DNA from: Thermoanaerobaculia bacterium | GTDB lineage: Bacteria > Acidobacteriota > Thermoanaerobaculia > UBA5066 | Length of the DNA stretch: 64,000 nucleotides | Direction: 5' to 3' | NCBI GenBank assembly: GCA_963719225.1 | Contig: CAVRAY010000001.1 | Location: 384,001-448,000 of the forward strand | Shown here: piece by piece, positions 23,690-57,662 of the stretch | How positions within the stretch are numbered: position 1 is the first letter of the stretch | How the letters are laid out: every line of letters begins with the position of its first letter | Translations under genes and position numbers: made by a program | Notes under the pieces: model-generated | Seen by the model: the letters and a program-made list of their open reading frames with translations, nothing else | Databases searched by the model: none | What the model was told of the DNA's origin: nothing

Positions 23690-24499
23690 GTGCTGAAGAA
23701 CCTCGCCGGCCTGTGGCGCCACCGCGCGCTCGCCTACGTCCTCGTCGCCCGCGAGCTGAAGGCACGTTATCGCGGCAGCGTGCTCGGGTTCTTCTGGTCG
23801 CTCCTGAATCCGCTCCTCATGCTCGCGGTCTACGCGATCGTCTTCGCCGTCATCTTCACGGGCCGCGGCCCGGAGACGTCGCCCTACGCGCTCTTTCTCT
23901 TCTCCGGCCTCCTGCCGTGGAACTGGCTCTCGTCGTCCCTGACGGACGCGGCCGCGTCGCTCACGACGCACGGCGCGCTCCTGAAGAAGATCCTCTTTCC
24001 GGCCGAGGTGCTGCCGCTCGTGGCGGTCCTCGCGCAGGGCCTCCACTTCGTCTTCGCTCTGCCGGTCCTCCTCGCCGGGCTCGTCCTCGGTGCGTTCGGG
24101 GTCTTCGGTCCGGCGATTCCCCTCGGATGGCCTCTCGTCCAGGCCGTGCCGCTCTTCGTCCTCGAGGGGGTGTTCGTCGCCGGCGTCGGCCTTTTCCTCG
24201 CCGCGCTCACGGTCCATTTCCGCGACGTGAAGGATCTCCTCGCGACGGCGCTGTCGCTCTGGTTTTTCGCGACGCCCGTCCTCTACACGCTCTCGGACAT
24301 CAAGCAGGATCGCATGCGTGCGCTCCTGAAGCTCAATCCCGCGGCGCCTCTCTTCGACGCGTGGCGCGACGCGCTCTTCTATGCCCGGTGGATCGAGCCG
24401 TCCCGGTGGGGGCTCCTCCTCGCGATCGCGCTGGTCGCGTTCTTCCTCGGATACGCGCTCTTCGACCGGCTGCGCGACTCGTACCCGGAGGCCGTGTGA
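23690..24499 (+). CDS. wzm: ABC-2 polysaccharide export permease (Wzm/TagG-like)
   Basis: RELKARYRGSVLGFFWSLLNPL, FRDV, TPVLY and LNP. Confidence 0.85.
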   Translation: MLKNLAGLWRHRALAYVLVARELKARYRGSVLGFFWSLLNPLLMLAVYAIVFAVIFTGRGPETSPYALFLFSGLLPWNWLSSSLTDAAASLTTHGALLKKILFPAEVLPLVAVLAQGLHFVFALPVLLAGLVLGAFGVFGPAIPLGWPLVQAVPLFVLEGVFVAGVGLFLAALTVHFRDVKDLLATALSLWFFATPVLYTLSDIKQDRMRALLKLNPAAPLFDAWRDALFYARWIEPSRWGLLLAIALVAFFLGYALFDRLRDSYPEAV

Positions 24500-25947
24500 A
24501 GACCGAAACGCAAGCCGCGTCCGCCGTCACGGCCGAGGGCCTGTCGAAGAGCTACCGCAAGTGGGGGAGGACGCGCGCGTTCGGGACGCTGAAGTCGGCG
24601 CTCCTCGGGCGGTCGCTGGCGGCGGCGCTCGCGCCGTCCGAGGTGGTCGCGGCGCTCTCGGACGTGTCCTTCACGGTCGCGCGCGGCGAGACCTTCGGCG
24701 TCGTCGGGCCGAACGGCTGCGGCAAGTCCACGCTGCTGAAGCTCGTCGCCGGCCTCTTCAAGCCCACTTCGGGGCGGATTTCCGTAGACGGAAAGGTCTC
24801 CGCCCTCATCGAGCTCGGCGCGGGCTTCCACCCGGAGATCTCGGGGCGCGAGAACGTCGTCATCAACGGCGTCATGCTCGGGCTCACGCGCAAGGAGATC
24901 GAGCGCAAGCTGCCCGAGATCATCGCGTTCTCGGGCCTCGAGGACTTCATCGACGAGCCCGTGAAGACGTACTCGTCGGGCATGTACGTGCGCCTCGGCT
25001 TTGCGGTGGCCGTGCACGTGGACCCGGACATCCTCGTCGTGGACGAGGTGCTCGCGGTGGGCGACGAGTCCTTCGCGCACCGCTGCCTCGACACGATCGC
25101 GGACTTCTCGCGGCGCGGCAAGACGATCTTCTTCGTGTCGCACTCGCTCGTCCTCGTGGAGGAGCTGTGCGACCGCGTGCTCTACCTTGAGAATGGCCGC
25201 GTCAAGGCGCTCGGCGACCCCAGGGAGACGCTCGCGAAATACCGCATGGACGTCGCGGCGGGGGAAGGTATGCGGCTTTCGACCGAGCACAAGAGGGATC
25301 AGGAAATTTTGCTTCGGACAAGAGAAGAGAAGATTTTCTTAGAAGGGGTAAAAGGGTCTGGGGCACCCGACGCCGGCGCGGTTGTCGAGCGAGCTGAAGC
25401 CGATTCCCCCTTCAAAGAAAATCCACCGTTTCCCGATGCTCCTCGAAAGCAGGATCTGGAACCGCCGTCGGAAAAACCTCTGGAACAGAAGATTCCTCTT
25501 CGCCGATGGGGTAACCGGGACGTGTCGATCACGGGATGCCGGCTGCTCGACTCTTCCGGCGCGGAGCGCTACGCGTTTCGCTCGGGGGAATCGCTGACAG
25601 TCGAGATTTCCGTCGAGCCGCGCGCGCCAACGTCCGACTTCGTCTTCGGCATCGGGATCTTCACTCCCGACGAGGTGTGCGTGCACGGGTGCAACACGGA
25701 GATCGACGGGTTCCTGCCGGAGCGTCTCGACGGCCCCGCGATCGTGCGCGTGACGCTGCCGCGCGCCGACCTCGGCACCGGGACGTACCTTCTGGACGTG
25801 GCGGTGCACTCCCGCCGCGAGACGCCGTACGACTACTGGCGCGGCGCGTGCCGCTTCCAGGTGGACTCGCCGGACCGCGAAGCCGGTCTCTACCGCCCCG
25901 AGCGCCGCTGGGCGTTTGCCGGCGCCGTCTGGGTGAGCTCGCGGTGA
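24496..25947 (+). CDS. wzt: polysaccharide ABC ATPase with C-terminal Wzt_C carbohydrate-binding domain
   Basis: GPNGCGKST, ELGAGFHPE, YSSGMYVRL and DEVLAVGD; C-terminal domain after a low-complexity linker. Confidence 0.88.
   Translation: MKTETQAASAVTAEGLSKSYRKWGRTRAFGTLKSALLGRSLAAALAPSEVVAALSDVSFTVARGETFGVVGPNGCGKSTLLKLVAGLFKPTSGRISVDGKVSALIELGAGFHPEISGRENVVINGVMLGLTRKEIERKLPEIIAFSGLEDFIDEPVKTYSSGMYVRLGFAVAVHVDPDILVVDEVLAVGDESFAHRCLDTIADFSRRGKTIFFVSHSLVLVEELCDRVLYLENGRVKALGDPRETLAKYRMDVAAGEGMRLSTEHKRDQEILLRTREEKIFLEGVKGSGAPDAGAVVERAEADSPFKENPPFPDAPRKQDLEPPSEKPLEQKIPLRRWGNRDVSITGCRLLDSSGAERYAFRSGESLTVEISVEPRAPTSDFVFGIGIFTPDEVCVHGCNTEIDGFLPERLDGPAIVRVTLPRADLGTGTYLLDVAVHSRRETPYDYWRGACRFQVDSPDREAGLYRPERRWAFAGAVWVSSR
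25335..25356 (+). repeat. intragenic TTTCTTAGAA motif, copy B
   Basis: TTTCTTAGAAGGGGTAAAAGGG. Confidence 0.7.
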
Positions 25948-27653
25948 TCCGGCCGGAACGCGTCGACCGGACGCTCCTCCTGCTCCTCCTTCTCGCGATC
26001 CTTCTGCTCGTGCTCGAGCCCGGCGCCGTTCCGCTCTTCGAGCCGGACGAAGGCCGCTACGCCGAGATTCCGCGCGAGATGCTCGCCACCCGCGACTTCC
26101 TGACGCCGCGCCTGAACGGCGTCCTCTACTTCGAGAAGCCGCCGCTGTACTACTGGACGGTCGCCGCGTTGATCGCGCTCCTCGGCCCGACCGAGCTCGC
26201 CGTACGCCTGCCGGGGAAGCTCGCTGCGGTGTCGATGGTCCTCCTCGCCGTGGCCTTCGCGCGGCGACGCTGGGGCACGCGAACGGGCCTGCTCGCCGGC
26301 CTGATCCTCGCGACGTCCATCCTCCTCGTCGCTCTCGCGCGCATCGCGTTGATCGACCCGATGCTCTCGGCGTCTCTGGCGGCCGCGACGTTCGCCTTCA
26401 CGGCGTTCGCGGAGGCGGACGCCGCCGGAGAGAGCCGGCGCGCCCGGCGGGCGCTCTACGTCTTTCACGCCGCCTGCGCGGCGGCGGTCCTTCTCAAGGG
26501 TCTCGTCGGGGTCGTCCTGCCGGGAGGGGCGATCGTCCTCTGGACGCTCGTCACCGGGCAGTGGCGAACGCTGCGCCGCGTCTTTTCGCCGGGGCCCCTC
26601 GTCCTCTTCGCGATCCTCGCGGTGCCGTGGCACGTCGCGATGGCCTTCCGCCATTCGGACTTCCTGCAGTTCTATTTCGTGCACGAGCACTTCCAGCGCT
26701 TCGCGACGACGGAGCACCGGCGGGCGGGTCCCCCCGCCTATTTCATTCCGGTCCTCCTCGCGGGCTTCCTTCCGTGGACGGGATTCTTCGGGCGCTTCCG
26801 GGAGGCGTGGCCGGGGTTTTCCATCAGCGGGTGGCGCACGCGCGCGACCGAGGGCTTCCTCTGGATCTGGTCGATCCTCGTCTTCGCGTTCTTCTCGGCC
26901 TCTGGGTCGAAGCTCATCCCGTACGTCCTTCCGATCTGGCCCGCCCTTTCGGTCCTTCTCGCGCTCGGCATCGAGCGCGCGCGTCAGCGGGGCGCCGAGT
27001 TCCGTGCCGACCGGCGGATCACGGCGGCGTTCTTCGGACTCCTCTTCGCGGGCGCGGCGGCGTTCGGATGGGGAGCGGGTTTTCTCGACCGCTTCGGGAA
27101 GGGTCGCACCGGACTCCTCGCGCTCGTGGCTCTTCTCGGCGGTTTCGTCCTCAACGTCTCTCCTCGATTTTTCGGCGCGAGAAAAGGGGGAGATCCCGTC
27201 CTCGCCGTGGCGGCGCCGTGGCTCGCCTTCGTGGCGGGGCTTCTCGTCGTGCTCCCTGGTGCGGCTCGCGTGATCACGCCGTGGCCCATCGTCTCGCGCG
27301 CCCGGGAGATCCTGCGGGCGGACGATCTGCTCCTGCAGAAGGGCCACTACCTCGAGGTCCTTCCGTTCTATCTCGGGCGGCTGACGCCGATCGCCACGCT
27401 GGGCTGGAGCGAGCTCGATTTCGGGCGCTCGCACCCCGGAACCAAGGCGCTTTTTCCGACCGACGAAGACTTTGCCGCGGACTGGAACGGGAGCCGCCGG
27501 GTTCTCGTCGTCGCGCACCGGGATCAGCTCGCCGGATTCGGTCGGCCGCCGCTTTCCGGGACTCCTCCCGAGGTCCTCGCGCGGGAGGCGAACGGGAAGC
27601 ACTGGCTGCTCTCGAATCGGAGGATAGGATCAGGATCCAATAGTTTGGATTAA
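25944..27653 (+). CDS. arnT: ArnT-like GT-C glycosyltransferase (Ara4N transferase family)
   Basis: PDEGRYAEIPREM, YFEKPPLYYW, LLKG, EHFQRF and SKLIPYVLP. Confidence 0.8.
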   Translation: MIRPERVDRTLLLLLLLAILLLVLEPGAVPLFEPDEGRYAEIPREMLATRDFLTPRLNGVLYFEKPPLYYWTVAALIALLGPTELAVRLPGKLAAVSMVLLAVAFARRRWGTRTGLLAGLILATSILLVALARIALIDPMLSASLAAATFAFTAFAEADAAGESRRARRALYVFHAACAAAVLLKGLVGVVLPGGAIVLWTLVTGQWRTLRRVFSPGPLVLFAILAVPWHVAMAFRHSDFLQFYFVHEHFQRFATTEHRRAGPPAYFIPVLLAGFLPWTGFFGRFREAWPGFSISGWRTRATEGFLWIWSILVFAFFSASGSKLIPYVLPIWPALSVLLALGIERARQRGAEFRADRRITAAFFGLLFAGAAAFGWGAGFLDRFGKGRTGLLALVALLGGFVLNVSPRFFGARKGGDPVLAVAAPWLAFVAGLLVVLPGAARVITPWPIVSRAREILRADDLLLQKGHYLEVLPFYLGRLTPIATLGWSELDFGRSHPGTKALFPTDEDFAADWNGSRRVLVVAHRDQLAGFGRPPLSGTPPEVLAREANGKHWLLSNRRIGSGSNSLD

Positions 27654-27732
27654 AAATCCTCCTTCGCGCCGCCTGGTCAGATTTCTCCCTTTGCCTGCAG
27701 TGCCTTACCGTCTGATAGGCTTTCACCCTCGG

Positions 27733-27748
27733 AGGCAGCGGAATTGCA
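27733..27748 (+). promoter_or_regulatory. candidate sigma54 (-24/-12) promoter
   Basis: AGGCAGCGGAATTGCA gives GG-N10-GC with TTGC, upstream of the first TonB receptor. Confidence 0.4.
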
Positions 27749-27765
27749 CCCGGTTTTGTGGTTTT

Positions 27766-27796
27766 CGTCACACCCTCGGACAAGGAGGGTGTGACG
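27766..27796. repeat. perfect 12-bp inverted repeat in the long intergenic leader
   Basis: CGTCACACCCTC-ggacaag-GAGGGTGTGACG. Confidence 0.7.
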
Positions 27797-27983
27797 TAAG
27801 CTCCAAAAAGACCTCGGAGAGCTTTGCGGAGCGGTCAAACAGGAAACCAGAAATAGAGCCTCGGGTGAGCAAAACCAAACGCGAAAGGAGAGTACGAAGG
27901 ACTTCCACAGTACTGTCGAATCTCTACATCGAGTCCTTACGACAGGATCCCATTTTCGTTTCAATTCAGGAGGTAGATTGAAT

Positions 27984-30932
27984 ATGAAATCAAGTTGGCT
28001 GAGCACGTTCATGGTGCTCGCGCTCGCCGTCCTCGGTCTGACGGCGAACGTGGCCTACTCGCAGGTCACCGGCAACATGGTCGGGGCCGTCAGAGACAGC
28101 AACGGCGGCGGACTCCCGGGCGCCTCGGTCGAAATCAAGAGCCCGGCTCTCCAAGGGATGAGAACGGCCGTCACCGCGAGTGACGGCAGCTTCCGATTCT
28201 CGCAGCTCCCTCCCGGCGAATACCTAGTGACGTTCTCCCTCTCGGGTTTCTCCAAGGTCGAGAAGAAGGCTGCCGTGCAGCTCGACAAGACGGTCCACGT
28301 CGACGCGGCTCTTCAGATCAGCGTCAGGACGGAAGAGATCATCGTGACGGGCGAGGCGCCGGTCGTGGATGCCACATCCTCGTCATCCGGCGCGAACTTC
28401 ACGTCGGACTTCGTGAAGACGCTCCCCGTTGGGCGCAACTTCGCGGCTTTGGCCACGAAGACCCCGGGCGTCGTTCAGGGCTTTGGGGCGGACGCGGCGA
28501 ACTTCAACGTCTACGGCTCGACCGGCGCCGAGAACAGCTTCGTCATCGACGGCGTCGACACGACGGAGGCCCGCTACGGGCGCCAGGGCAAGGCGGTGAC
28601 ACAGGAGTTCATCCAGGAGATCGAGGTCAAGGCCGGCGCCTTCCAGGCCGAGTATGGCCACGCCCAGGGGGGCGTCCTGAACGCCATCACCAAATCGGGC
28701 GGAAACACATTCCACGGGGACGCATTCGGCTACTTCTCCGGCAAGCCGAACACCGCCGATGGCAGCGACATCTGGCAAGCGGAGGACAAGCACCTCCAGC
28801 AGAAGGCTGACTCCTTCGGCACGACCCGTTCCCAGACGGATCCGATCCGGAACACGGCGAACAACGACTTCGGCGCGGATCTCGGCGGCTTCTTCGTCAA
28901 GGACCGCATCTGGTTCTTCGGGGCGTACGACCGCGTCTACCAGGGGCGGACCGACTACCTGAACAAAGCGGCCGGCTCGTGCACGACGAGCCCCTGCCCG
29001 CCCGGCACGGGACCGGGCACCGGAACCCTGAGCGGGGCGTCGTTGCCCACCACGTTCGACCAGGACCTCTACGCCGGGAAGCTGACGTTCACGGCGGCCT
29101 CCTGGCTCACCTTGGTCGGCTCGATCTTCGGAGACCCGCAGACCCGCGCTCCCAATCTGGGCACGCCTCTGGCGGGCGCCTCCGTGGGTACGTACGCAGG
29201 GACGCAGAAGCTCGGCGGCGTTGACTACAGCGGCCGGGTTTCGGGCGTCGTCGGCTCGTCCTTCCTCTTCGAGGGGCAGGCGGCGAAGCACCAGGAGGAG
29301 AACACCCCAACCCCGGCGAACACGGCGGACCCCCGTATCCTCCCGACCATTCCGTCGGGGCTTCCGCGGCAGGGCGGGTTCGGCTTCTACGAGGCGGCCA
29401 AGTACAACCGGAATTACTTCAAGGCGAATGCGAGCCTCTTCGCGAACTTCCTCGGGTCGCACGAATTCAAGGGGGGCGGCGACTACGCCGACGTCCGGTC
29501 CGAGATCACCCGCCAGTACACGGGGCCGGCGGGAGCGAAGCAGGACATCTACACCCGAGTTTTCGTCGAGGGGACGGTCTACCAGCACGAGTACAACTCT
29601 ACGGGCCTGCGGAACGCCGCTGGGGACCCGATCGAGACGGACTCGAACCTGGCCCCGATCTCGCGCACGAACAACTACGGCCTCTTCATCCAGGACAAGT
29701 GGCAGGTGCTCCCGAACCTGACCTTGAACATCGGATTCCGCTACGAGGATCAGAAGGTCAAGGATGTGTTCGGCGCGACTCAGATCCACGTCGCGAACGA
29801 GCTGATGCCGCGCGTGGGCTTCGCCTGGGACTTCCTGGGCGGCGGAAAGTCGCGCCTCTACGGGAACTACGCGCGCTTCTACGAGACGATGCCGACGGAC
29901 ATCAACATCCGGGCTTACGGCTACGAGATCACGACGGCCGTCTACAACCAGGACATCAACAGCTTCCACGGCGACGCGAACGTCTGTGGCGCGGGGAAAT
30001 GGCACGACGCCGCGGGCAACGCCTACACGGTGTGCAGCGCCGGGCGCCAGAGCACGATCAAGACGGGCGGCAGCTTCGGCGAGCCGACTGAGCCCGGCAT
30101 CAAGGGCCAGTTCTCGGACGAATACACCCTCGGCGTCGAGTTCCAGCCCATCACCGACCTCTCGGTCGGCGCAAAGTACATCTACCGCAGCCTCGGCCGG
30201 GTGATCGAGGACGGCGGAACCGTGAACGCCGCCGGGGACCTCGAGTACTTCATCTTCAACCCTGGGGACACGTTCATCAGCCCCGCCTCCGGCGAACTCG
30301 TCGGGGGGGACTACGCGGACGTGCCCCCGCGGCGCTTCTACAGGGCCGTGCAGCTCACCGCCCAGAAGCGCTTCAGCAACAAGCTCCAGTTCATCTTCTC
30401 GTACACCTGGTCCAAGCTGGAGGGCAACTACGACGGCGTCTTCCAGACCTCTACGACGCAGCTCGACCCGAACATCAATTCGGCGTACGACTATCGCCGG
30501 TTCCTCGACCACGCGTACGGCTACCTCTCGAACGATCGGCGCCACACGTTCAAGCTCGACGGCTCGTACGTGACGCCGTTCGGCCTCACCGCCGGTCTCT
30601 CGGCCTACTACTACACCGGAACGCCGATCACCCAGTACGGCTACGACAATGACTACCGCAACTACGAGCTCTACCTCTCGGATCGTGGAACCGTGGGCCG
30701 CACGCCGGACGTCTACGACGCCGACCTCCACCTCAGCTACCAGTTCCCGGTCGGTCCGATCAAGATCCTCGTGGGCGCGGACGTCTTCAGCGTGTTCAAC
30801 ACGCAGAGGACCCTGGCCGTGGATCAACGCTACGACCTCGGGCCCGGAGGACCCCAGCAGGCCAACTACCTGCAACCCGTCCAGTTCACTCCGCGTCGTT
30901 CCCTCCGCCTGACCACGAGGGTGAGCTTCTAA
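27984..30932 (+). CDS. TonB-dependent receptor, Oar-like, with N-terminal carboxypeptidase-regulatory-like domain (copy 1)
   Basis: Signal peptide, LPGASV..FRF..LPPGEY, AEYG..GGVLNAITKSGGN and C-terminal RVSF; SD AGGAGG. Confidence 0.9.
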   Translation: MKSSWLSTFMVLALAVLGLTANVAYSQVTGNMVGAVRDSNGGGLPGASVEIKSPALQGMRTAVTASDGSFRFSQLPPGEYLVTFSLSGFSKVEKKAAVQLDKTVHVDAALQISVRTEEIIVTGEAPVVDATSSSSGANFTSDFVKTLPVGRNFAALATKTPGVVQGFGADAANFNVYGSTGAENSFVIDGVDTTEARYGRQGKAVTQEFIQEIEVKAGAFQAEYGHAQGGVLNAITKSGGNTFHGDAFGYFSGKPNTADGSDIWQAEDKHLQQKADSFGTTRSQTDPIRNTANNDFGADLGGFFVKDRIWFFGAYDRVYQGRTDYLNKAAGSCTTSPCPPGTGPGTGTLSGASLPTTFDQDLYAGKLTFTAASWLTLVGSIFGDPQTRAPNLGTPLAGASVGTYAGTQKLGGVDYSGRVSGVVGSSFLFEGQAAKHQEENTPTPANTADPRILPTIPSGLPRQGGFGFYEAAKYNRNYFKANASLFANFLGSHEFKGGGDYADVRSEITRQYTGPAGAKQDIYTRVFVEGTVYQHEYNSTGLRNAAGDPIETDSNLAPISRTNNYGLFIQDKWQVLPNLTLNIGFRYEDQKVKDVFGATQIHVANELMPRVGFAWDFLGGGKSRLYGNYARFYETMPTDINIRAYGYEITTAVYNQDINSFHGDANVCGAGKWHDAAGNAYTVCSAGRQSTIKTGGSFGEPTEPGIKGQFSDEYTLGVEFQPITDLSVGAKYIYRSLGRVIEDGGTVNAAGDLEYFIFNPGDTFISPASGELVGGDYADVPPRRFYRAVQLTAQKRFSNKLQFIFSYTWSKLEGNYDGVFQTSTTQLDPNINSAYDYRRFLDHAYGYLSNDRRHTFKLDGSYVTPFGLTAGLSAYYYTGTPITQYGYDNDYRNYELYLSDRGTVGRTPDVYDADLHLSYQFPVGPIKILVGADVFSVFNTQRTLAVDQRYDLGPGGPQQANYLQPVQFTPRRSLRLTTRVSF

Positions 30933-30961
30933 TCTTTTCTTCTTCCAAACCTCCCGGTCTC

Positions 30962-30984
30962 AGGGCCCCTTCGGGGGCCCTTTT
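30962..30984 (+). terminator. rho-independent terminator
   Basis: AGGGCCCC-TTCG-GGGGCCCT followed by a T run. Confidence 0.85.
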
Positions 30985-31008
30985 CATTTGGCTATCATCC
31001 GATCGGAG

Positions 31009-33027: not shown

Positions 33028-34091
33028 TTCTTCGGGAGCATAGTCTTCGCCACGGTCTCGAGCGTCGCGAGGACGTCGTGCCCCCTTTGCAGGACGTCAA
33101 CGCCGGCGCCTTCCTTCGTCTGGAACTCGAACTCGACCTCGGTGAACCGGACTTCCTTCGGGAGCCGATCGCGCCGGTAGTGCCAAGTCTCGCGAGTCCC
33201 CTGGAGCGTCTCGGCGGAAAGCGCGACACGAGGCACGAGCCGCATGGACGTGCTGCCGTCCGCATTCCTGACCATCTCGGAAGTGGGAGCATTCCGGCTG
33301 ACCTGAATCGGGTCGTCTTCGGGCTTGAGAGGGCTTTGGCCGACATAGCTCGGGGGACCGAGCAGGACGAAGACAAGCCCCCGATCCGTCGCGCTTCCCC
33401 TCGTCTCGCCCTGCTTGAGTCGCAGGTCTGCGAACCGGATCCTGCGTTCGATCTCCTGCTTTTGCGCCGGATCCCGTCGCTGCCAGAAAGTGTGGATGAA
33501 CTCTACCCGGTCTGCCGTAGACTGGAGAGCCCGCCAAGACTGCTTTTCCTCCTTCGTCATGAAGTACCGGACGGGACCTTCAGCCCAGCGCTCGTCTGGG
33601 AACGCCGCCGGCTCCTCCTGGTCTTCGGGGAAGAAGTGTGCGTAATCGCTCGCGATCCCGTTGTCGAGGGCGGCGGGAACATGCGGCGGCGGCGGCGCCT
33701 TCTCTCGGACGTTATTGAAGACCTCGATCACGGCCTTCGGAAACATGGCCGGGTCGAGCCGCGCGTTGGGCGCGGCTTCCAGATACTTCTCGAACTGGAG
33801 GCGCGCGTCCTCGTTCTTCCCGAGGGCCGCCAGGTTCGCGCCCCGGTAAAACGCAATGATCGGCTCCAGCTTCGTCCGCGCGGCCTCGAATCCGGACGCG
33901 CGGCTCATCTCGTCCAGCCGGTGGAAGGTCTCGAGGGAGGCCTCGTAGGTCCCCGTCCTGAACTCGGACTTCCCCTTCTGGAACAGCTCGTTGAGGGGAG
34001 CTTGCGCCCGGGCGTCCGTCGCGAAGAGCACCCCGGCGAAGATCATCAGTATCGGGGACCGCCAGAACCACCGGGAGAAGGTGCTACTCAT
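33024..34091 (-). CDS. GWxTD-domain protein with N-terminal TPR
   Basis: YFMTKEEK..FIHTFWQRRDP..RRIRFAD..GSATDRGLVFVLLGPP..ETWHY. Confidence 0.8.
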   Translation of the reverse strand: MSSTFSRWFWRSPILMIFAGVLFATDARAQAPLNELFQKGKSEFRTGTYEASLETFHRLDEMSRASGFEAARTKLEPIIAFYRGANLAALGKNEDARLQFEKYLEAAPNARLDPAMFPKAVIEVFNNVREKAPPPPHVPAALDNGIASDYAHFFPEDQEEPAAFPDERWAEGPVRYFMTKEEKQSWRALQSTADRVEFIHTFWQRRDPAQKQEIERRIRFADLRLKQGETRGSATDRGLVFVLLGPPSYVGQSPLKPEDDPIQVSRNAPTSEMVRNADGSTSMRLVPRVALSAETLQGTRETWHYRRDRLPKEVRFTEVEFEFQTKEGAGVDVLQRGHDVLATLETVAKTMLPKN

Positions 34092-34230
34092 CGCACGCCT
34101 CGAAACGCATCGAGTCTACCTCAAGGCAGGGCCTTCATTCGAATAGAATCGAATAGCAAACTCTCCATCGGCCGTCGAACCCCAGGTCGAGATCCCCCGT
34201 TTTCGTTTCGATTCAGGAGGTAGATCGAAT

Positions 34231-37320: not shown

Positions 37321-37342
37321 CTCGTTCTCGATCGATTCTTTC

Positions 37343-37370
37343 GGGCCCCGGGCAACCGGGGCCCTTTCTT
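37343..37370 (+). terminator. rho-independent terminator
   Basis: GGGCCCCGG-GCAA-CCGGGGCCC followed by TTTCTT. Confidence 0.85.
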
Positions 37371-37394
37371 CTTGGGCCAGTAGAATCCTTTCCG

Positions 37395-48762: not shown

Positions 48763-50493
48763 ATGGTCGAGGGCCGCCGGTTGAGATTCTGGGCCGCCGT
48801 GCTTCTCCTCGCCTCTCTGGGCTCGGCGCTCGTCTTCGATCACACGCGCCTCGACAGCCCGACGATGGACGAGCCGTTCCACACGCTCGCGGCGGCGGAA
48901 TACGCGATCGCGGGCACGTACTACGCGAACCTGGAGCACCCTCCCCTCGTGAAGCTCCTGTCGGGATTCGCGATCCGGGCGGCGGGAGGACGCGCGCCGA
49001 GGATGGAGGTCCCGTTCTCGATGGCGACGGCCGAGCAGCCCAGGCCGTTCAGCTTCAGCTCGCCGCTGCGTCCCGAGACGCTCTTCGCCGTCGCGCGCGC
49101 GCCGGTTCTCGCGCTGTTCTTCCTTCTCGTCGTCGTCGTCGGCGGGGCCGTGCGCTCGTGGGCAGGCGACCTCGCCGGAATCCTCGCGGCCGCGCTCGTC
49201 GCGTTCGAGCCCAATCTCCTCGCGCACGCGGGTGTCGTTCACACGGACCTCGCGGCCGCGCTGGGTTTCTTCGGGACGCTCGTTCTCGCGGTCAAGGCCC
49301 TCGAGCGCCGCTCGCTCGGCTTGTGGGCGGCGGCCGGCGCTGCTCTCGGCGCGAGCCTCGCCGCGAAGTTCTCGTGCGTCCTCCTCGTCCCGATGGTCGC
49401 GCTCCTCGCGCTGACCGGCCTCTTCCGGGAGCGTCGGGCCGCCGCCCGGGAAGGCCGCCTTCCGGATCTCGTCGCCCTCAAGGGGCTCCTTCTCGCGGGC
49501 GCGACGTCGCTCGCGGTCCTCCTCGGCTGCTACGCGATCGCCATGCGGCACATGAGCGGCGGCGAGGCCGCCAAGGCGGTGCGCCTTTTTCTCGTCACGC
49601 GGCAGGCGCCCGAGGCGACGATCGACCGGATCCTCGCGATCTCGCGGCTCGACAAGGAAGCCGGCCACTATGCGGCGGGTCTCGCGGGCATCGCCGTCCA
49701 GAACAAGACGGGCGGCGGCGTGAACACCCTCCGCGGAAAGCTCTCGGTGGACGGATTCTGGGAGTACTTCTTCGTCGCCTTCGCGGTGAAGAGCACGCTC
49801 GCCACGCTGGCGATTCTCCTGATCGCCTGCGCTGCGGGCATCGCGCGAAAGGTCCGCCCCGACCTCGTCCTGCTCACGCTCGTCCTCCCGCCGGCCTATC
49901 TCTTCCTGACCGGCATGGCGACGTCCTACAACATCGGTATCCGCCACATGCTGCCCGTGTACCCGCTCCTCCTCGCGGCAGCCGTTCTCGTTCTGTTCCG
50001 GTCTCTGTCCGCGCGCGCGGCCGCGGTCGTCCTCGCCGTTCTCGCCTCGGGGCAGGTCGTCGAGACCCTCAGCGTCCATCCGCACGAGCTCTCGTTCTTC
50101 AACGTCGCCGCGGGAGGGCCGGCGAACGGCGCGGCATGGCTGAACGACTCCAACCTGGACTGGGGACAGGACCTCGAGCGGCTCGCGCGCCGGCTCGAGG
50201 CGCGCGGCGAGGAAGGACGCACGACGATCGCGTATTTCGGCGGAGGCGACGTGCCGTACTACGCGCCAAAGGCGCGGGTGTTCATCCCGGCGCGGACACC
50301 GCTCACCCCCGGCCTCTGGGCGGTGTCCTCGTTCCTCATGTGCTGCGGGCCGGAGGCGATGGCCTTCCACGGCGATCCGGCCGCCGCCGTGGGCTTCCAG
50401 CAGCTTCGCCGAGAGATCTCCGCGCGCGGAACGCCCGTGGGTCGCGTGGGATACTCCATCGTCCTGTACGACCTGAAAGAAAAGAGCCCATGA
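48763..50493 (+). CDS. PMT/ArnT-like GT-C glycosyltransferase
   Basis: [26 protein letters not shown] and [10 protein letters not shown]. Confidence 0.8.
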
Positions 50494-51902
50494 AGCTGTC
50501 GATCGTGATGCCGGCGTACAACGAGCGCCGGACGATTCGCGAGATCCTCGCGCGGGTCAAGGCCGTCGACCTCGGAGACCTCGAGCGCGAGATCCTGATC
50601 GTGGACGACGGCTCGGAGGATGGCACGCGGGAGCTCCTCAAGGAGCTCGACGGCAAGGACGGCGTCCGCGTCCTGCTGCAGCCGCGCAACATGGGGAAGG
50701 GAGCGGCCGTCTGGGCCGGCATGCGGGCCTCGACGGGAGACCTCGTCGTCATCCAGGACGCGGACCTCGAGTACGACCCGGAGGAATACCCGGTGCTGCT
50801 CGGGCCGATTCTCGCCGGCAAGGCGGACGTCGTTTACGGATCCCGCTTCCTGGGAAGCCCTCACGGACACCGCGTCCTCTATTACTGGCATACCGTCGGA
50901 AACCGGCTGCTCACGCTCATGTCGAACCTCTTCACGGACCTGAACCTCTCCGACATGGAGACCTGCTACAAGGTCATGACGCGCGGCGTCGTGGACCGGC
51001 TCGATCTCAAATCGCAGCGTTTCGGCGTGGAGCCCGAGATCACGTGCAAGGTGGCGCGCATGCGCGCCCGGATCTTCGAGGTCCCCATCTCCTACAGCGG
51101 ACGAACTTACGAAGAGGGCAAGAAGATCGGCGCCAAGGACGCCTTCCAGGCCGTCTGGACGATTCTCAAGTACTTCCGCTGGGAGGCTCCGGACAGCGAC
51201 GTCGGAGCGATCACGCTGCGGCGGATGGGGGAGCTCTCCGTCTACAACCGCTGGCTTCACGATCGGGTCGACGGGTGGCTCGGGTCGCGTGTCCTCGAGG
51301 TCGGCTCGGGAGTCGGAAACCAGACCCGTTTCTTCGCCGACAAGGAACGGGTCATCGCCTCGGACATCGAGCCGCACTACGTTCGCGAGCTCCGCACACG
51401 GTTCGAAAAGCACGGAAACGTCCGCGTCGCCTCGTTCCGTTTTCCGCTCACCCCCCAGGACCGCGCCGATCTCGAAGCGGAGCGGATCGACTCGATCGTC
51501 TGCATGAACGTGCTCGAGCACATCGAGAACGACGCGGGAACGCTCGCGGATTTCTGCCGCGTCCTCCAGCCGGGAGGACACCTTGCGCTTCTCGTGCCCG
51601 CTCTTCCCGCCCTCTACGGCACGCTCGACGAGAACCTGCGCCACTACCGCCGCTACGAGAAGGGCGCCCTCGCGACCCTCGTGGGACACGCGGGATTCAC
51701 GGTGGAATCCGTCCGGTACCTGAACCGCCCCGGCGTCCTGGGCTGGTGGCTGAACTCGCGCGTCCTCAAGCGCCGCGTCCTTCCGAAGAGGCAGCTGGGG
51801 GCCTTCAAGTGGATCATGCCGCTGCTGGAGGCAGAGGAGAGGACGGAGCCGTCGTTCGGGATGTCCCTCCTCGTCCTCGCCCGGAAACCCCAAGCGGCGT
51901 GA
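50490..51902 (+). CDS. GT2 glycosyltransferase fused to class I SAM methyltransferase
   Basis: QDADLEYDP and DMETCYK in the N-terminal part; [18 protein letters not shown] and HYRRY in the C-terminal part. Confidence 0.88.
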
Positions 51903-54133
51903 AGCAAAAGGCGCCGGACCTGGTACCGGCTCTCGTCCTCGTGTTCGGCGCCGCGGCGCTTCGCTTCGCGCCCTTTCTGGCCGGCGGCACGCTGTACCGC
52001 CGCGACGCGGGCTTCTTCTTCGTCCCCTGGAGGCTCGTTCTCGCGAGATTCTTCCGGGCGGGCGAGGCGCCGTTCTGGAACGAGTGGATGTCGGCCGGAA
52101 GGGCCTTCGCGGCCGATCCCAACGCCGCGGTTTTCTGGCCCCTGTCGCCCCTTCTCCTCGTCGTCTCGCCGACCGTCCTCGCCCTCGCGAACGCCGCTCT
52201 CCTTCTGGGCGTCTTCTTCTTCGCGCTCCGCCGAATCGGGCTCTCGGCGACGGCGTCCGGCGCCGGGACGCTCGTCCTTCTCTTCTCGGGTGTCTTCCAG
52301 GCGCTGCCTGTTTACGCGACGACGTGCGCGGCGGCCGTTCCGCTTTCCCTAGCGCTCGTCGAGGCCCCGCGCCTTTCCGCGCGCGAGCCCGCCATCCGCC
52401 GCCGCGCCTGTGCTTTCGCGGCGCTCGCCTTCGGCCTTTCCGCGCTCGGCGGCGAGCCCGCGGTGACGCTGATGGGCGCCGCGGCCTTCGTCGCGGTCGC
52501 GATCGGCGCGGCAAAGGGATCGCGCCCGCGCGCGACGGCCGGCGGCGTCTTCGCGCTCGCCCTCGGGATCGGGATCGCCGCGATCCAGGTCCTTCCGGCG
52601 GCCCTCGAGGTGGCCCGGTCCGCTCGTGGCGCGGGGATGCGTCCCGAGCACGGCGCCCTCTTCTGGTCCGTGCGTCCGGCACGCGTCCTGACGCTCCTCG
52701 AGCCCCGCCTCACGGGAGATCCGCCGGGGGACACGGCCTCGTTCTGGGGCTCGGGCACGTTCGACGCGGGAAATCCGTACTTCGAGGACCTCGCGCTCGG
52801 CCTCGTGCCCCTCCTTTTCGCGGCGGCCGCGTGCCGCGATCGGCGCGGGCGCGCGGCGCTTCTCCTCGCGGGGTCGGGAACGGTTCTTTCCTTCGGGCGG
52901 TTCCTGCCAGGCTACTCGGTCCTCGCCGCGGCGCTCCCGGTGATCCGGTATCCGGAGAAGTGGTGGCTGCTCGTGACGCTCGCGCTCGCGGCGGCGGCGG
53001 CGGTCGGCGTCGAGGCAGTCTTTTTAGGCGAGGCGGAGGTTCGGGAATCGGCGCGAAGGATTTTGCTGAAGACCGCCGTGGGAATGGCTCTCGTCTGCGG
53101 CGCGCTGCTCGCTTTGGCGTTCGGCGCTGAAGATTTTCTTAGAAAGGGCATATGGGCTGTGGGACTGGGCGCCGGATCCACTTCTGCTGCGGCCGTGGCT
53201 TCGGCTCTTCGCCCCCACCTCATTCTAGGAACTCTTAGTCTTGTCGTCATCGCGGCACTCACATCGCTCGTCACGCACAACTGCCAGCCCGAACCCCTCT
53301 TCACCTTCGAGGAGAAGCTGCGCAGCCCGCTGCTTCTCGCCGGCATTCTCGGCGTGCTGTTCTTCACCGACGCCGCGCGGCGCGTCGCCGGAACCTGCCC
53401 CGCGGGGCCGCCGGATCTCTACCGCAAGGAGACGCCCGCGGTCGCGCTCGTCGGGAAGGAGGCCGGTGCCGGCCGTTTCTACGACGACGGTGCGGACGAT
53501 GCCCCGACCGCGGCGCGAAGGACGCGCGAGGCCGGCGGCCTCGACCTCCTTCGTCCCGTCACGGGAACGGCTTTCGGCATCCGGTACGCGGGGGAGAACG
53601 ATGTGGACCGAATGACGGCGGCCCCGTCGGTGCGGTTCGCGAGCCAGACGGCGGGCCTGGGCTGGTGGCCGGAGAAGGTCGCGCGCCTGCGCCGGCTCGG
53701 AGTTGCCATCGTCCGCACCGCGGTTTCGCCTCCCGATCCGACCGGCGTCGTCGAGCTCGGGCGCTTCGGGGGCGATCGGATCCTGCGCATCGAGGGAACG
53801 CGCGACGAGTTCGCGGTCCTGCCGGCGGGAGGCGGACGCGTGACGGTCGAGGAACGCGGCGCGAATTTCGCGCGTCTCGCCCTCCACGTCGCGCTGCCCG
53901 CCGCGATCCTTTCCGTCTCGCGGAGCTTCGATCCGAACTGGCACGCCCTCCTGGACGGGAAAGAGCTCGTCCTCCGCCCCGCGGACGGTTTTCTGACGGC
54001 CGCGGACGTGCCGCAGGGAGACCACGAGCTCGTCCTTCGGTACCGCAATCCCGCTTTCGCGGCCGGAGGGGCGCTGTCGATCGCATCGCTTCTTTTCGTC
54101 GCTCTTCTCGCACGATCTCCCGGCGGGCCATGA
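51899..54133 (+). CDS. YfhO-like multi-pass membrane protein (GT-C)
   Basis: YRRD..FFFVP, PFWNEW..G..FAADPN, GGEP, RYPEK; C-terminal [18 protein letters not shown]. Confidence 0.75.
53135..53156 (+). repeat. intragenic TTTCTTAGAA motif, copy D
   Basis: TTTCTTAGAAAGGGCATATGGG; shares the 16-mer GAAGATTTTCTTAGAA with copy B. Confidence 0.7.
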
Positions 54134-56235
54134 AGGCCTCTCTCCGCGCCCGCCTCCCGCTTGCGGCGGCGATCGTCCTCGCTCTCCTGCCGTTCCGCGA
54201 GTTCCTCGGTTCCGGAGTGCCGTCCGGCCGCGACCTCCTTTTCTATTTCTTTCCGCTCAAAGCCCACCTCGTCGAGGCGGTGACGCGCGGCGAGATGCCG
54301 TGGGTGGACCGTTTTCGATGGGGCGGATCGCCGCTCCTGGGCGCGCCTTCGGCGGCCCCCTTCGACCCCGCGAACATCCTCTTTCTGGTCCTGCCGCTCG
54401 GTGCGGCCATGAAGGCGTGGATCCTCCTCCACCTCGGCGTCGCGCTCGCGGGTTTCGCCGCGTTCACGCGGCGCCTCGGGCTCGAGCGCGGGCCGGCAGC
54501 CGTCGCCGGGCTCGTCTTCGCGCTCGGTGGCACGACCGTGTCGCTCGCCGCGTTTCCACCCACGCTTTCCGCCCTCTCGATCCTCCCCTGGTTCGCCGCG
54601 TTCGTGTTCGACCTCGTCCGTGCACCGGGAAGGCGCACGACGGCGGCCGTCGCCGCCTCCGCCGCTCTGATCCTCCTCGCCACGTCGCCCGAGCTCATTT
54701 TCTTCTCGGCGTGTGTCGCCGTTGCGGTCTTCTTCTCGGCGCGCCGCGAGGCCGGGACCTGGCGCCAGGCGATGCGTCCTCTGACTCTCCTCGCGCTGAG
54801 CGCGCTTCTTGCCGGCGGCCTCGGCGCGATCGCGCTCCTGCCGGCGGCCGCCACCGCCGAGCGCAGCGTCCGCTCGCCGGGGGGCGGCCTGGGAACCGGA
54901 GCCGCGTCGATCAAGCCGCTCGCTGTCCCGCGACTTCCCGAACTCCTCTTCGACGGGGTGGTCGCGGACTGGACGGTCGTCGCGGTGGTGCCGCGCGTCC
55001 CGGACTATCCGTTTCTCCCCTCCCTGACGCCGGGGCGCGTCGCGTGGGCGCTCGTCCTCGCGGGGCTGCTCCGAAAAGGCACCGGGCGGATCGCCGCAAT
55101 CGGTATCGCTCTTTTCGGAACCCTGCTCGCGCTCGGCGACGCGACGCCGTTCTTCGGCCTCGTGGCAAGAGCGGTCCCTCTCCTCGCGCGGATCCGGTAC
55201 CCGGAAAGACACGTGATCCTCGCGGGCTTCGGTCTCGCCTGGCTCGCCGCTCTCGGCATCTCGCGGCTCGCAGCTGCCGTCTCGCCTCGCGCCCGGAAGG
55301 TCGTCCTCGTGCTCCTCGCCCTTGCGGTCTTCGTGGACCGCGAAGGAGTCGCGCGCCGCCTCTCGCCGGTCGAGGACGCGTCCCTCCTGACAAAACGGCC
55401 TCCTCTTCTCGCGTCGTTGCCGGAGGCTTCCGGGGACGCGCCGCCACCTCGTCTCTTCTTCAACGATGCCTACCAGCCCGTTCCGATGTACGACACGCGC
55501 GACATCGTGGCCGTGAGCCGGGTCGGGTGCCAGACGCTCCTTCCCGCGTACGCGTCGCTCTTCGGCGTCGGCTACCAATTCGAGCTCGACTACGACCTCT
55601 CCCTCTCCGCGGAGGCGTTCGAGTGGACGCGGCTCCTTTCGAAGGCGGTGCCGAAGACGCCTTCTCTCGCTTTGCGTTTCGTCCGCGCCGCCGGTGTTTC
55701 GGCAATCCTGAAGAGCGATCGCGAGGCGGACGGGCGCTACCACCCGCACCTGATGAAGATCTTCAATCCCCTGCCGCCGTACCGCTTCGCGGCGCGTGTC
55801 GTCGCCTCCGGCGATGCGTCGTCGGTCTTCTCGAAGCTTCTCGAGGACGGCTTTTCCGCCGACACGGCGTACGTCGACACCGCGCTGCCGGGCGTTCCCG
55901 CTCTTCCCGCGGCTGGCCGGATCCTCTCAGCGGTCGACCGGCCTTCCGGGCTCCTCCTCGACGTCGAGGTGGACGGTCCGGCGCCGGGTTTCCTCATGCT
56001 CTACCGCCTGCGTGAAGCGGCGGAAGAGGCGACGCTCGACGGGCGTCCCGTTCCGGTCTCGCAGGTGGCCTTCGGGTTCGCGGGCCTCCCGGTCCCGCCG
56101 GGGAGACATGCTTTGCGATTGCGGCCCGACACGCGCTGGGTGAAGATCGGGGCGTTGATCTCCACCCTCACGGCGCTCGGTCTGGCCGCCGCCCTGCTCT
56201 CTCCCAGGCACCGCGCCGCATCCGGGAGCGCATGA
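54130..56235 (+). CDS. YfhO-like multi-pass membrane protein (GT-C)
   Basis: RDLLFYFFP, PW...GGSPL, RYPER and C-terminal VPPGRHALRL. Confidence 0.75.
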   Translation: MKASLRARLPLAAAIVLALLPFREFLGSGVPSGRDLLFYFFPLKAHLVEAVTRGEMPWVDRFRWGGSPLLGAPSAAPFDPANILFLVLPLGAAMKAWILLHLGVALAGFAAFTRRLGLERGPAAVAGLVFALGGTTVSLAAFPPTLSALSILPWFAAFVFDLVRAPGRRTTAAVAASAALILLATSPELIFFSACVAVAVFFSARREAGTWRQAMRPLTLLALSALLAGGLGAIALLPAAATAERSVRSPGGGLGTGAASIKPLAVPRLPELLFDGVVADWTVVAVVPRVPDYPFLPSLTPGRVAWALVLAGLLRKGTGRIAAIGIALFGTLLALGDATPFFGLVARAVPLLARIRYPERHVILAGFGLAWLAALGISRLAAAVSPRARKVVLVLLALAVFVDREGVARRLSPVEDASLLTKRPPLLASLPEASGDAPPPRLFFNDAYQPVPMYDTRDIVAVSRVGCQTLLPAYASLFGVGYQFELDYDLSLSAEAFEWTRLLSKAVPKTPSLALRFVRAAGVSAILKSDREADGRYHPHLMKIFNPLPPYRFAARVVASGDASSVFSKLLEDGFSADTAYVDTALPGVPALPAAGRILSAVDRPSGLLLDVEVDGPAPGFLMLYRLREAAEEATLDGRPVPVSQVAFGFAGLPVPPGRHALRLRPDTRWVKIGALISTLTALGLAAALLSPRHRAASGSA

Positions 56236-57662
56236 GCCTGGAGCCGGCTGCCCGCCGCCGCGCCGCCCTGTACGGCGGGGCGACCCTCGTTGCCGCGCTC
56301 GCGCTGTGGGCGATCCCGGCCTTCATCTCCCGTCTCGTCCCGGACGTGGTGGTTCGCCGGACGTACGTCGAAGCCGACGCCGCCATGAAGACCGAGGCGG
56401 TCAAGCTCCTCGGCGAATACGTCCGGATCGACACCTCGAATCCCCCGGGGCACACACGCCCCGCGATCGAGTTCCTCACCCGAATCCTCGAGTGCGAAGG
56501 GATTCCCGTGACGGTCACCGGCGCCGATCCGGAGCGCCCGATTCTCGTGGCTCGTCTCAAGGGCCGGACCTCCGAGGGGGCGCTCGCGCTTTACAACCAC
56601 GCGGACGTGGTTCCGGCCGGGGACCTCACGAAGTGGACGAAGCCGCCCTTCGCGGGAGAGCGCGGCGAGGGCCGTGACAGAGACCACCTCTTCGGCCGGG
56701 GAACGCTCGACATGAAGGGACAGACGATTGCGAACGTCCTCGCGCTCGCCTCCCTCGTGCGGGCGGGCGTCGTTCCCCTTCGCGACATCGTTTTCGTCGT
56801 GGAATCCGGAGAGGAGACCTATGACGAGAGCCTCGGGATGATCTGGATCATGGACCACCGTCCGGACCTTCTCCGGGGCGTGACGGACGTCTTCAACGAG
56901 GGAGGCGTCAACGAGGTCAGGACGCAGCAGGTCGAGCGCTTCGGCATCGAGGTCATGCAGAAAGCAATCCTCTCCGTGGACGTTCTCGCGAAGGAGCAGA
57001 AGCCGCTGGAGGATTTCGCGGCGTTTCTGAAGGTCGAGGATGAAAAAGAGCCGATACGCGTGGTGCCCGCCGTGCGGGAGTTCCTGCGATTCATCGCCCC
57101 CTCGCGCTCGGACGTCTGGGGCCGCCGAATGATCGGAGAGGCCGAGAAGATCGGCCCCGGAACGGAGTTCTGGCAGTACGTTCCCGAGGTCTATCGGGCC
57201 CTCCTCAGGGACAGCATCTACATGGGAGCGATCCAGAAGGAACCGGGCGGCTTCTCCATGCGCGTCGTGAAGACGCTCTTGCCCGGGAGCCCGGTCGCCG
57301 CCGCCAGGGGCCGGCTCGACGGCTGGCTTCGGGAGCGGAACCTCCGTCTGCGCGTCATTATGGCGACCGCGGACTCCGTGTCGAGCGCCGCGGAGGGACG
57401 CGCCTACCGGTGCGTCGAGAACGTGTTCAGCATGGACGAGGCGCATGCCCCGGTCGGGCCTTACATCCTGAGCAACCAGTACACGTCGTCCCAGGGGATT
57501 CGGGCGCGCGGCCTTCGCGCCTACGGTGTCTCCCCTTTCGCCGTGAGCATTTACGACGCGTTGTCGATTCATCACGAGAACGAGCGCATTTCCCTGCCGT
57601 TCTTCGTCGATGGAATCGAGCGGATGAGGCGGATCCTCTTCGAGTTCGCGACCTCGCCCTGA
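56232..57662 (+). CDS. membrane-anchored M20/M25/M40 metallo-hydrolase
   Basis: RIDTSNPPG, HADVV, GRGTLDMKG, GEE, NEGG and IHHENE. Confidence 0.85.
   Translation: MSLEPAARRRAALYGGATLVAALALWAIPAFISRLVPDVVVRRTYVEADAAMKTEAVKLLGEYVRIDTSNPPGHTRPAIEFLTRILECEGIPVTVTGADPERPILVARLKGRTSEGALALYNHADVVPAGDLTKWTKPPFAGERGEGRDRDHLFGRGTLDMKGQTIANVLALASLVRAGVVPLRDIVFVVESGEETYDESLGMIWIMDHRPDLLRGVTDVFNEGGVNEVRTQQVERFGIEVMQKAILSVDVLAKEQKPLEDFAAFLKVEDEKEPIRVVPAVREFLRFIAPSRSDVWGRRMIGEAEKIGPGTEFWQYVPEVYRALLRDSIYMGAIQKEPGGFSMRVVKTLLPGSPVAAARGRLDGWLRERNLRLRVIMATADSVSSAAEGRAYRCVENVFSMDEAHAPVGPYILSNQYTSSQGIRARGLRAYGVSPFAVSIYDALSIHHENERISLPFFVDGIERMRRILFEFATSP

Follow-up and report, generated by a model that had tools for sequence, protein, structure and literature searches.

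The subject of this analysis is a block of about 34 kb, rich in glycosylation genes, at positions 23,690 to 57,662 of a 64,000-nucleotide stretch of DNA from a Thermoanaerobaculia bacterium (Acidobacteriota; assembly GCA_963719225.1). This whole stretch, in the following called the window, corresponds to G000:C1:384001-448000 of the source genome, an assembly of two contigs that is 97% complete with 6% contamination. Genes of the window were chosen among the overlapping high-GC open reading frames (ORFs) by a codon model and then scanned with Pfam and NCBIfam. An earlier note on this DNA had listed wzm/wzt, an ArnT-like gene, a PMT-like and three YfhO-like membrane enzymes of the GT-C type, an STT3/AglB-like protein, three family 2 glycosyltransferases (GT2s) and genes of the 4-amino-4-deoxy-L-arabinose (Ara4N) pathway; profiles and structures confirmed this inventory, the PMT-like enzyme being of the PMT_2 type and the pathway genes arnC, arnD and a split arnA. 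It had also reported the absence of family 4 glycosyltransferases (GT4), Wzy and Wzz, and indeed none of these families was matched among the called genes of the interval. The features are, in window coordinates:

23690..24499, + strand: wzm, ABC-2 permease (PF01061, E 9.6e-15)
24496..25947, + strand: wzt, ATPase with a C-terminal Wzt_C domain (PF00005; PF14524, E 2.7e-24)
25944..27653, + strand: ArnT-like GT-C enzyme (phmmer match to 5EZM; Arnt_C)
27654..39403: variable non-glycosylation cargo of 11.75 kb (Pfam; two receptors, two phosphodiesterase-TPR proteins, one GWxTD protein)
28011-30932, + strand: first TonB-dependent receptor of the cargo (Pfam)
31009-33027, + strand: first phosphodiesterase-TPR protein (Pfam)
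33024-34091, - strand: GWxTD protein (Pfam)
34231-37320, + strand: second TonB-dependent receptor (Pfam)
37527-39380, + strand: second phosphodiesterase-TPR protein (Pfam)
39404..40321, + strand: arnC-like GT2, predicted undecaprenyl-phosphate sugar transferase (PRK10714, 369 bits, cut-off 529)
40321..41235, + strand: ArnA formyltransferase half (PRK06988, 374 bits, over the cut-off)
41235..42266, + strand: ArnA decarboxylase half, UDP-4-keto-pentose/UDP-xylose synthase family (PRK11908, 554 bits, over the cut-off)
42263..43279, + strand: arnD-like deformylase (PRK15394, 188 bits, cut-off 382)
43287..43745, + strand: hotdog-fold thioesterase (PF03061), present in most loci of the source's family
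43756..46041, - strand: YfhO-like GT-C no. 1 (YfhO-1), 761 aa (model, Foldseek, tree)
46038..46781, - strand: short GT2 without membrane tail, polyprenol-phosphate sugar synthase type (AglJ and PpgS profiles, below cut-off)
46794..48712, - strand: AglB/STT3-like GT-C, one base short near 47390-47372, with PWSAGH replacing WWDYGH
48763..50493, + strand: PMT_2-type GT-C with an invariant DE pair in the first loop (PF13231/PF02366, E 1.2e-5)
50490..51902, + strand: GT2 (Dol-P-mannose-synthase/AglJ-like) fused to an S-adenosylmethionine (SAM) methyltransferase (Pfam/NCBIfam; match to 5MLZ)
51899..54133, + strand: YfhO-like GT-C no. 2 (YfhO-2; weak PF09586, YfhO profile, BLASTP)
54130..56235, + strand: YfhO-like GT-C no. 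3 (YfhO-3; weak PF09586, ESM Atlas YfhO clusters)
56232..57662, + strand: membrane-anchored M20 peptidase-family protein (PF01546)

Six GT-C genes at one place are notable but, given the abundance of such genes throughout the genome (30 PMT_2 matches, 21 of them over the cut-off and only 2 in the window; 7 YfhO-like ORFs), not unique. The two proteins that were modelled, YfhO-1 and an intact orthologue of the AglB-like protein, both have GT-C folds, in agreement with the earlier assignment. The YfhO-1 model is confident (predicted local distance difference test score, pLDDT, 90.9); Foldseek matched it best to AftD (E 8.4e-11), with ArnT at E 2.7e-6, and in a wide structure search (VIA) it reached Z 19.2 to STT3B and 18.4 to ArnT, the top 20 rows (Z 19.2 to 8.3) all being GT-C-type membrane proteins. 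In a tree, YfhO-1 has positional orthologues in all three families compared. YfhO-2 scores 588 bits against a YfhO profile that was built including YfhO-2 itself and matches YfhO-1 by BLASTP (E 3e-13), while in the ESM Atlas the PMT-like protein falls with PMT_2 clusters and YfhO-3 with YfhO clusters; by homology and these features, YfhO-2, YfhO-3 and the PMT-like protein are likely GT-C enzymes. No sequence match in the PDB was found for the PMT-like protein, the YfhO profile retrieved from the PDB one unrelated designed protein only, and profile-profile comparisons of the PMT-like protein with ArnT (probability 0.2%) and of YfhO with the AglB-like protein (1.5%) gave no signal. The ArnT-like protein matches the solved ArnT of C. 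metallidurans (5EZM, phmmer E 8.6e-56) but reaches 213 bits where the NCBIfam model for ArnT demands 567; it is likely a lipid A aminopentose transferase. As for the three GT2s, two have no membrane tail, the short enzyme and the methyltransferase fusion; the sole PDB match of the former and the best PDB match of the latter are the same Dol-P-mannose synthase (5MLZ; E 1.5e-7 and E 4.7e-24, respectively), and together the ArnC, AglJ/PpgS and Dol-P-mannose synthase matches assign all three to the polyprenol-phosphate sugar synthase type. The earlier proposal that sugars are drawn from lipid-phosphate donors outside the cytoplasm fits these predicted GT2 types.

The AglB-like protein was modelled from its intact orthologue in genome G003, about 89% identical to that of the source (pLDDT 87.7). 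The best Foldseek match of this model is Archaeoglobus fulgidus AglB (AfAglB; 7E9S, E 5.4e-21, TM score 0.74), and superposition on 3WAJ gives Z 37.3 with a root-mean-square deviation of 3.4 over 540 residues; according to the model, the protein thus carries the STT3/AglB fold. Residues D47, D161-H162-H163, E360 and R426 of AfAglB are described as metal and phosphate sites (PMC8342417). Within the genus, D44, D159/H161, E348 and R415 of the AglB-like protein align to D47, D161/H163, E360 and R426, and the middle histidine H162 is likewise kept; the threonine of the TIXE motif is not, and the DHH and arginine positions are not constant among the orthologues from the other two families. The WWDYG motif is described as the pocket for the Ser/Thr of the N-x-S/T sequon (PMC8342417), and PglB with W458A-D459A is reported to be inactive (PMC3527161). 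At this position, where AglB has WWDYGH and the source protein PWSAGH, we found PW[S/A]xGH in 62 of 66 ORFs, the remaining four being frameshifted, and in 114 of 120 homologues among the matches listed, none of which has WWD. The equivalent of AfAglB Gln571 is V, G or similar, and the His81 position is changed as well. Among 598 exported proteins, called by a hydropathy heuristic that makes this a weak test, no sequon enrichment was seen (810 observed, 835 expected).

Homologues without WWD come from several phyla. A profile search returned 1153 AglB-like representatives at E 1e-30 or better, and the motif census took in the best 150 of these 1153, of which 118 were at least 560 aa long and 113 remained after five misaligned rows had been dropped. 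Among these 113 full-length listed representatives, 15 have WWD, 20 have xWD and 78 have neither, i.e. 98 are without WWD; the named WWD-less rows belong to Nitrospinota, Myxococcota, Omnitrophota and Elusimicrobiota. With FastTree, 14 of the 15 WWD rows fall into one clade that includes a Halobacteriota AglB (long branches were flagged in our FastTree trees, and we claim neither a donor nor an order of events from them). The close subfamily of the block's enzyme is found, at a strict cut-off, in 28 of 29 genomes of the order and in 2 of 91 elsewhere in the class. The source genome also has a second, stand-alone AglB-like paralogue of 677 aa (G000:C1:3266490-3268523; L136:8490-10523) with PWDYGH at the WWDYG position, which adjoins a beta-lactamase-fold gene; no donor genes were recognised nearby.

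In the source assembly a frameshift of one base interrupts the AglB-like gene. Five loci of relatives, as well as contigs from three of four sequencing runs, have one base more just after five C's, and close relatives encode the protein in a single frame of 637-642 aa. A search for reads of the same strain found none, the best run sharing only 0.18 of the sampled words. The ratios of non-synonymous to synonymous substitution rates (dN/dS) of the two parts against G003, obtained with a rough counting method, are 0.18 and 0.14, like those of the neighbours; both parts are under purifying selection. Because the relatives carry the extra base and both parts behave like their neighbours, the frameshift is likely a sequencing error. 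A programmed frameshift or a two-gene AglB was also considered and is ruled out by the single 637-642 aa frame of the relatives and the extra base in the contigs of three runs.

The composition of the block is not particular to the source genome. For gene order, 20 of the 37 relatives that gave a match were compared, each over the 40 kb surrounding its AglB-like gene and with a preference for long contigs; the unpublished genome G025 is included in the tallies of AglB-like, ArnT, pilin-distance and arnB matches and excluded from all statements on gene order, and related genomes are not independent samples. The block has the same order in all ten genus genomes fetched, with differing cargo content. 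In nine of the ten genomes fetched from the other two families, arnC-arnD, YfhO-1, the AglB-like gene and the GT2-methyltransferase occur together, so that this core is kept across three families at 30-70% protein identity; the exception is G028, where the AglB-like gene lies elsewhere and the remainder of the block is intact. The GT2-methyltransferase fusion is about 60% identical across the order, and the Wzt_C domain of Wzt is retained in the other families, where wzm/wzt lie within range in seven of ten fetched genomes; in G034 and G036 they stand apart from the genes of the AglB/YfhO core. Blocks of these families add GT87-like, PMT_2 and more YfhO genes, a PAP2 phosphatase and GDP-sugar enzymes, and the number of GT-C genes differs from genome to genome. 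ArnT was found in 40 of 41 genomes and is mostly unlinked from arnC-D in the other families. The flanks of the block are conserved among relatives. Taken together, the gene block is inherited and conserved across one order of Thermoanaerobaculia.

This bears on how the locus had been described. That its genes are not scattered in relatives agrees with the earlier note, and the glycosylation genes named there are present, but the term island does not hold: about 13.6 of the 34 kb are non-glycosylation genes (cargo, thioesterase and terminal M20 peptidase), the GC content of the block (0.677) is that of the contig, and the gene order is order-wide. A genomic island or recent transfer is ruled out by the contig-like GC, the conserved flanks and the synteny. 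A single assembly line is at most hypothetical: ArnT lies apart from the block in most genomes of the other families, the AglB-like gene is elsewhere in G028 and the GT-C number is variable.

For the aminopentose branch, arnC, both ArnA halves, arnD and an ArnT homologue are present, ArnC, ArnD and ArnT scoring below their equivalog cut-offs. ArnB is absent from the interval, and the matches in 25 genus genomes do not exceed 47% identity; neither is it present in two sister-genus loci where the region is covered, nor did G031 and G035, of another family, give a close match. Among 16 genomes of the other two families, 13 have an arnB orthologue at 70-100% identity to the query. With dN/dS of 0.08 for the ArnA formyltransferase half (vs G003) and 0.25 for the deformylase, the putative Ara4N-type pathway (39404-43279) is kept under purifying selection despite the lack of an arnB orthologue in the genus. 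Other genes of the DegT family number at least two in each of the 20 genus genomes searched (in the source, e.g. G000:C1:962350-963483), and a substitute, unlinked aminotransferase in place of ArnB is a plausible candidate. As lpxC is present in the genome, ArnT has a plausible acceptor in lipid A. Two lpxC matches lie on the second contig (C2:30237-31034 and C2:772988-773788); they may reflect a true duplication or belong to the 6% contamination.

No match to the GtrA flippase family (PF04138) was found in the 97%-complete genome, which does encode an unlinked 110-aa EamA/TMEM234 protein. Of its four Wzm/Wzt pairs, three lie in regions with GT4 genes and that of the block does not, in line with the earlier view that this is no standard O-antigen locus. 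The pair of the block may flip lipid-linked single sugars or export a polymer made elsewhere. A further cluster, at G000:C1:2973357-2988023 (L137), may be a second lipid-sugar system: besides a small EamA/TMEM234 protein and a methyltransferase-GT2 fusion, it encodes several methyltransferases, an SGNH protein and three multi-pass membrane proteins that match Pfam poorly or not at all.

Candidate protein acceptors come from the neighbourhood of YfhO genes. In the source genome, a fourth YfhO gene, 108 kb from the block, lies between two type IV pilin-like genes and pilD, after which come genes for a kinase and two copies of pilT; the pilin-like genes have the N-methyl motif and a GspG-like head. 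The order pilin-pilin-YfhO-pilD-kinase-pilT was found in all seven genus genomes examined, source included. In the other two families, where 13 of 16 genomes have a pilin match, the block passes without a break into M20-pilin(s)-YfhO in each of the 12 genomes fetched, and pilD comes next after YfhO in 11 of them, the contig of the twelfth ending first. Throughout the order, a gene for the M20 peptidase is almost always found between the YfhO genes and the pilins. The simplest reading is a single ancestral locus that was later split in the family of the source. Even in other orders of the class, a YfhO match lies within 10 kb of a pilin match in 22 of 28 genomes; of the remaining six, five have no YfhO match at the cut-off and one has its pilin at a contig end. 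The GT-C enzymes that stand beside pilins are thus the fourth YfhO, outside the window, and the block in the other families, and not the six GT-Cs of the window here. Within the stretch from the block to the pilin module there is also a polysaccharide locus (G000:C1:461392-502800; L133, L134) with Wzc-like, Wza-like, Wzm/Wzt, Wzy_C and GT4 genes, which adjoins large genes whose N-termini resemble polyketide synthases/non-ribosomal peptide synthetases.

Sequons of the pilins were counted as well. Thirteen genus pilins (e.g. G000:C1:548565-549731; L135:8565-9731) have 0 against 10.8 expected, and 18 pilins of the other families, after five frameshifted rows had been dropped, have 44 against 30.2 expected. 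The latter are Asn-rich with up to five sequons, none of them invariant. As the counts are opposite between families and no sequon is invariant, we did not use them to support our preferred reading.

Turning to the remaining contents of the block, the TonB-dependent receptor and phosphodiesterase-TPR genes form a cassette that is duplicated in tandem with a spacing of about 6.25 kb (27949-39380); the copy number of the cassette and the GWxTD gene vary among genus members. The receptor cargo occupies the position held by arnB in G028 and G038, and was not seen at the same position in the other two families. Operon-like overlaps of 4 bases join YfhO-1 with the short GT2 and run from the PMT-like gene through M20. 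No tRNA was found in the window, an Rfam scan gave no match, and a promoter and terminator scan was uninformative. Upstream, at 19196-23654, a CrtC/lipocalin protein and an FtsX/MacB-type ABC transporter are encoded divergently from wzm, the transporter genes holding the same position in most relatives examined. Within 56232-58327, M20 is followed by a gene for a small exported protein, which has a linker rich in Pro, Thr and Gly and may be a target of O-glycosylation.

Compared with known systems, the block fits multi-component transmembrane glycosylation by GT-A synthases, assigned from homology, and GT-C transferases, a logic described in PMC8035078 and PMC11127046. Systems such as GtrB/GtrA/Gtr*, CsbB/GtcA/YfhO, PgfS/PgfM1/PgfM2 and GtrB/PgtC2 likewise pair GT-A synthases with YfhO- or PMT_2-type GT-C enzymes outside the cytoplasm; the block differs in having three donors and six GT-Cs in one diderm locus, in possessing Wzm/Wzt and an AglB-fold enzyme, and in its genome lacking a GtrA match. 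Its combination of genes is closest to the Haloferax Agl pathway, for which AglJ, a methyltransferase, AglB and a second lipid-monophosphate transferase are described (PMC3871713): like that pathway (AglJ, AglP, AglB, AglD/AglS), the block has an AglJ-like GT2, a methyltransferase and further GT-Cs as neighbours. With euryarchaeal AglB (AglB-L, 3WAJ/7E9S) the enzyme shares the fold and, in the genus, the equivalents of the metal and phosphate residues, whereas its motif, its Gln571 and His81 positions, its shorter length (about 640 aa) and the lack of sequon enrichment in exported proteins set it apart. The arn (pmr) pathway with ArnT has in common with the block arnC, both ArnA activities, arnD and the ArnT homologue, and with the genome lpxC; here, however, ArnA is split, the arnB orthologue was not found in the genus, arnE/F are missing from the block, and the other families mostly keep the donor genes with the AglB/YfhO core and ArnT elsewhere. 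In the P. aeruginosa group IV pilA-tfpW O-arabinosylation system, a GT-C is also located directly downstream of the pilin gene and a polyprenol-phosphate sugar is predicted, a likeness in gene arrangement and predicted donor; YfhO-type enzymes, GspG-like pilin heads, the distance of the module and the absence of D-Araf pathway genes from the block are the differences. An ABC-dependent O-antigen locus shares Wzm/Wzt, but the block has no GT4 and its three GT2s are of the synthase type. The earlier description of the system as undescribed is apt for its composition, which we did not encounter in the searched literature, and not for its principle, which is that of known multi-component transmembrane glycosylation.

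Considering all of this, we favor, with about even confidence, the reading that the block is a multi-donor hub for glycosylation from undecaprenyl-phosphate sugars, in which ArnT serves lipid A and the other transferases mainly pilins and exported proteins; both the mechanism and the acceptors are what we infer from the gene content. In a first step, three GT-A enzymes would load single sugars onto undecaprenyl phosphate: ArnA, ArnC and ArnD, with an unlinked aminotransferase, would supply an aminopentose donor, the short GT2 a second sugar donor and the GT2-methyltransferase fusion a third one, probably O-methylated. The donors would then be flipped, possibly by Wzm/Wzt, proposed here because no GtrA gene was found. 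In the periplasm, ArnT would modify lipid A, and the AglB-like, PMT-like and YfhO-like enzymes would link sugars to proteins, or elongate those already there, with acceptor selection by a rule different from N-x-S/T. There are precedents for such acceptors: GT-A and YfhO-family enzymes are reported to O-glycosylate streptococcal proteins (PMC12041528), and the GT-C TfpW, encoded beside pilA, to glycosylate pilin (10.1101/2020.04.19.049825). AfAglB is described as binding a dolichol-monophosphate donor (PMC8342417), which suits the GT2 types of the block and which we count in favor of the hub. Also in its favor are the synteny of the block, its link to pilin genes in the relatives and the purifying selection on both parts of the AglB-like gene.

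Several observations weigh against the hub. Within the genus, the pilin module is 43-108 kb from the block wherever both are on one contig. Genomes of relatives, from which the synteny and the pilin link are drawn, are not independent of one another. The pilD-adjacent YfhO forms its own clade outside the window (FastTree), and YfhO-2 and YfhO-3 do not group with the pilin-proximal copies of the other families. The AglB-like enzyme is order-specific and the YfhO-pilin link is class-wide, so the AglB-like enzyme need not act on pilins; in the source strain, moreover, its gene may be truly broken. Finally, YfhO and PMT_2 enzymes are described as modifying glycopolymers too (PMC8035078), and AftD, the best Foldseek match of YfhO-1, is an arabinan enzyme.

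A more specific form of the hub can be sketched, which we regard as unlikely though worth stating: the WWD-less AglB would prime pilins or exported proteins from an undecaprenyl-monophosphate sugar outside N-x-S/T, and the YfhO- and PMT-like enzymes would build outward from donors carrying an aminopentose or a methylated sugar, with Wzm/Wzt as the flippase. The block would then be the bacterial equivalent of the dolichol-phosphate pathway of Euryarchaeota, with a new acceptor rule, and a model case for the large multi-phylum family of WWD-less AglB homologues.

The strongest alternative, possible in our view if doubtful, is tailoring of a glycopolymer, in which Wzm/Wzt would export a polysaccharide built elsewhere, the GT-Cs would add side sugars to this polysaccharide or to lipopolysaccharide in the manner of Gtr systems, and the pilin neighbours would be incidental. 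The order-wide Wzt_C beside a conserved methyltransferase-bearing GT2 speaks for it, as do the presence of lpxC and the resemblance of YfhO-1 to AftD; chain capping read by a Wzt binding module is known, and side-chain addition on ABC-exported O-polysaccharide is described (PMC11127046). Yet the block has no GT4 or Wzy-type polymerase, G034 and G036 have their wzm/wzt away from the AglB/YfhO core, the three other Wzm/Wzt pairs of the genome are those among GT4 genes, and tailoring leaves unexplained both a YfhO gene between pilin genes and pilD and an enzyme of the AglB fold. Rather improbable, too, is a conserved neighbourhood of independent donor/transferase pairs with only the lipid carrier in common, i.e. 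arn and ArnT for lipid A, the distant YfhO for the pilin and the others for unrelated acceptors. The unlinked ArnT of most genomes of the other families, the detached AglB-like gene of G028, the coming and going of extra GT87-like, PMT_2 and YfhO genes, the use of both strands and the cargo inserted inside the block are what such pairs would look like; against them stand the several operon-like overlaps and the persistence of the core in three families at only 30-70% identity. Canonical N-glycosylation, in which the AglB-like protein would be a regular oligosaccharyltransferase acting on N-x-S/T and supplied by the GT2s, as AglB is in haloarchaea, is very improbable: AfAglB is closest in sequence and structure, archaeal STT3 and AglJ are the best NCBIfam matches and the 18 pilins of other families exceed their expected sequon number, but none of the 120 close homologues listed has the WWD without which PglB is reported inactive, the Gln571 equivalent is replaced, exported proteins are not sequon-enriched and the 13 genus pilins have no sequon at all.

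The WWDYG pocket is regarded as the conserved reader of the N-glycosylation sequon. Here, a bacterial order retains an enzyme of the AglB fold without WWDYG, under purifying selection, beside probable donor enzymes and, ancestrally, candidate acceptors in the form of pilins. In the literature searched, with few subscription journals, we found no report of protein or pilus glycosylation in Acidobacteriota or of glycosyltransferases of Thermoanaerobaculia; a phylogenetic mention of such homologues may exist elsewhere. If the hub is real, Acidobacteriota would gain a system for glycosylating proteins or pili, possibly with transferases that have new acceptor rules for glycoengineering. The block gives a concrete gene set for asking what WWD-less AglB homologues glycosylate.

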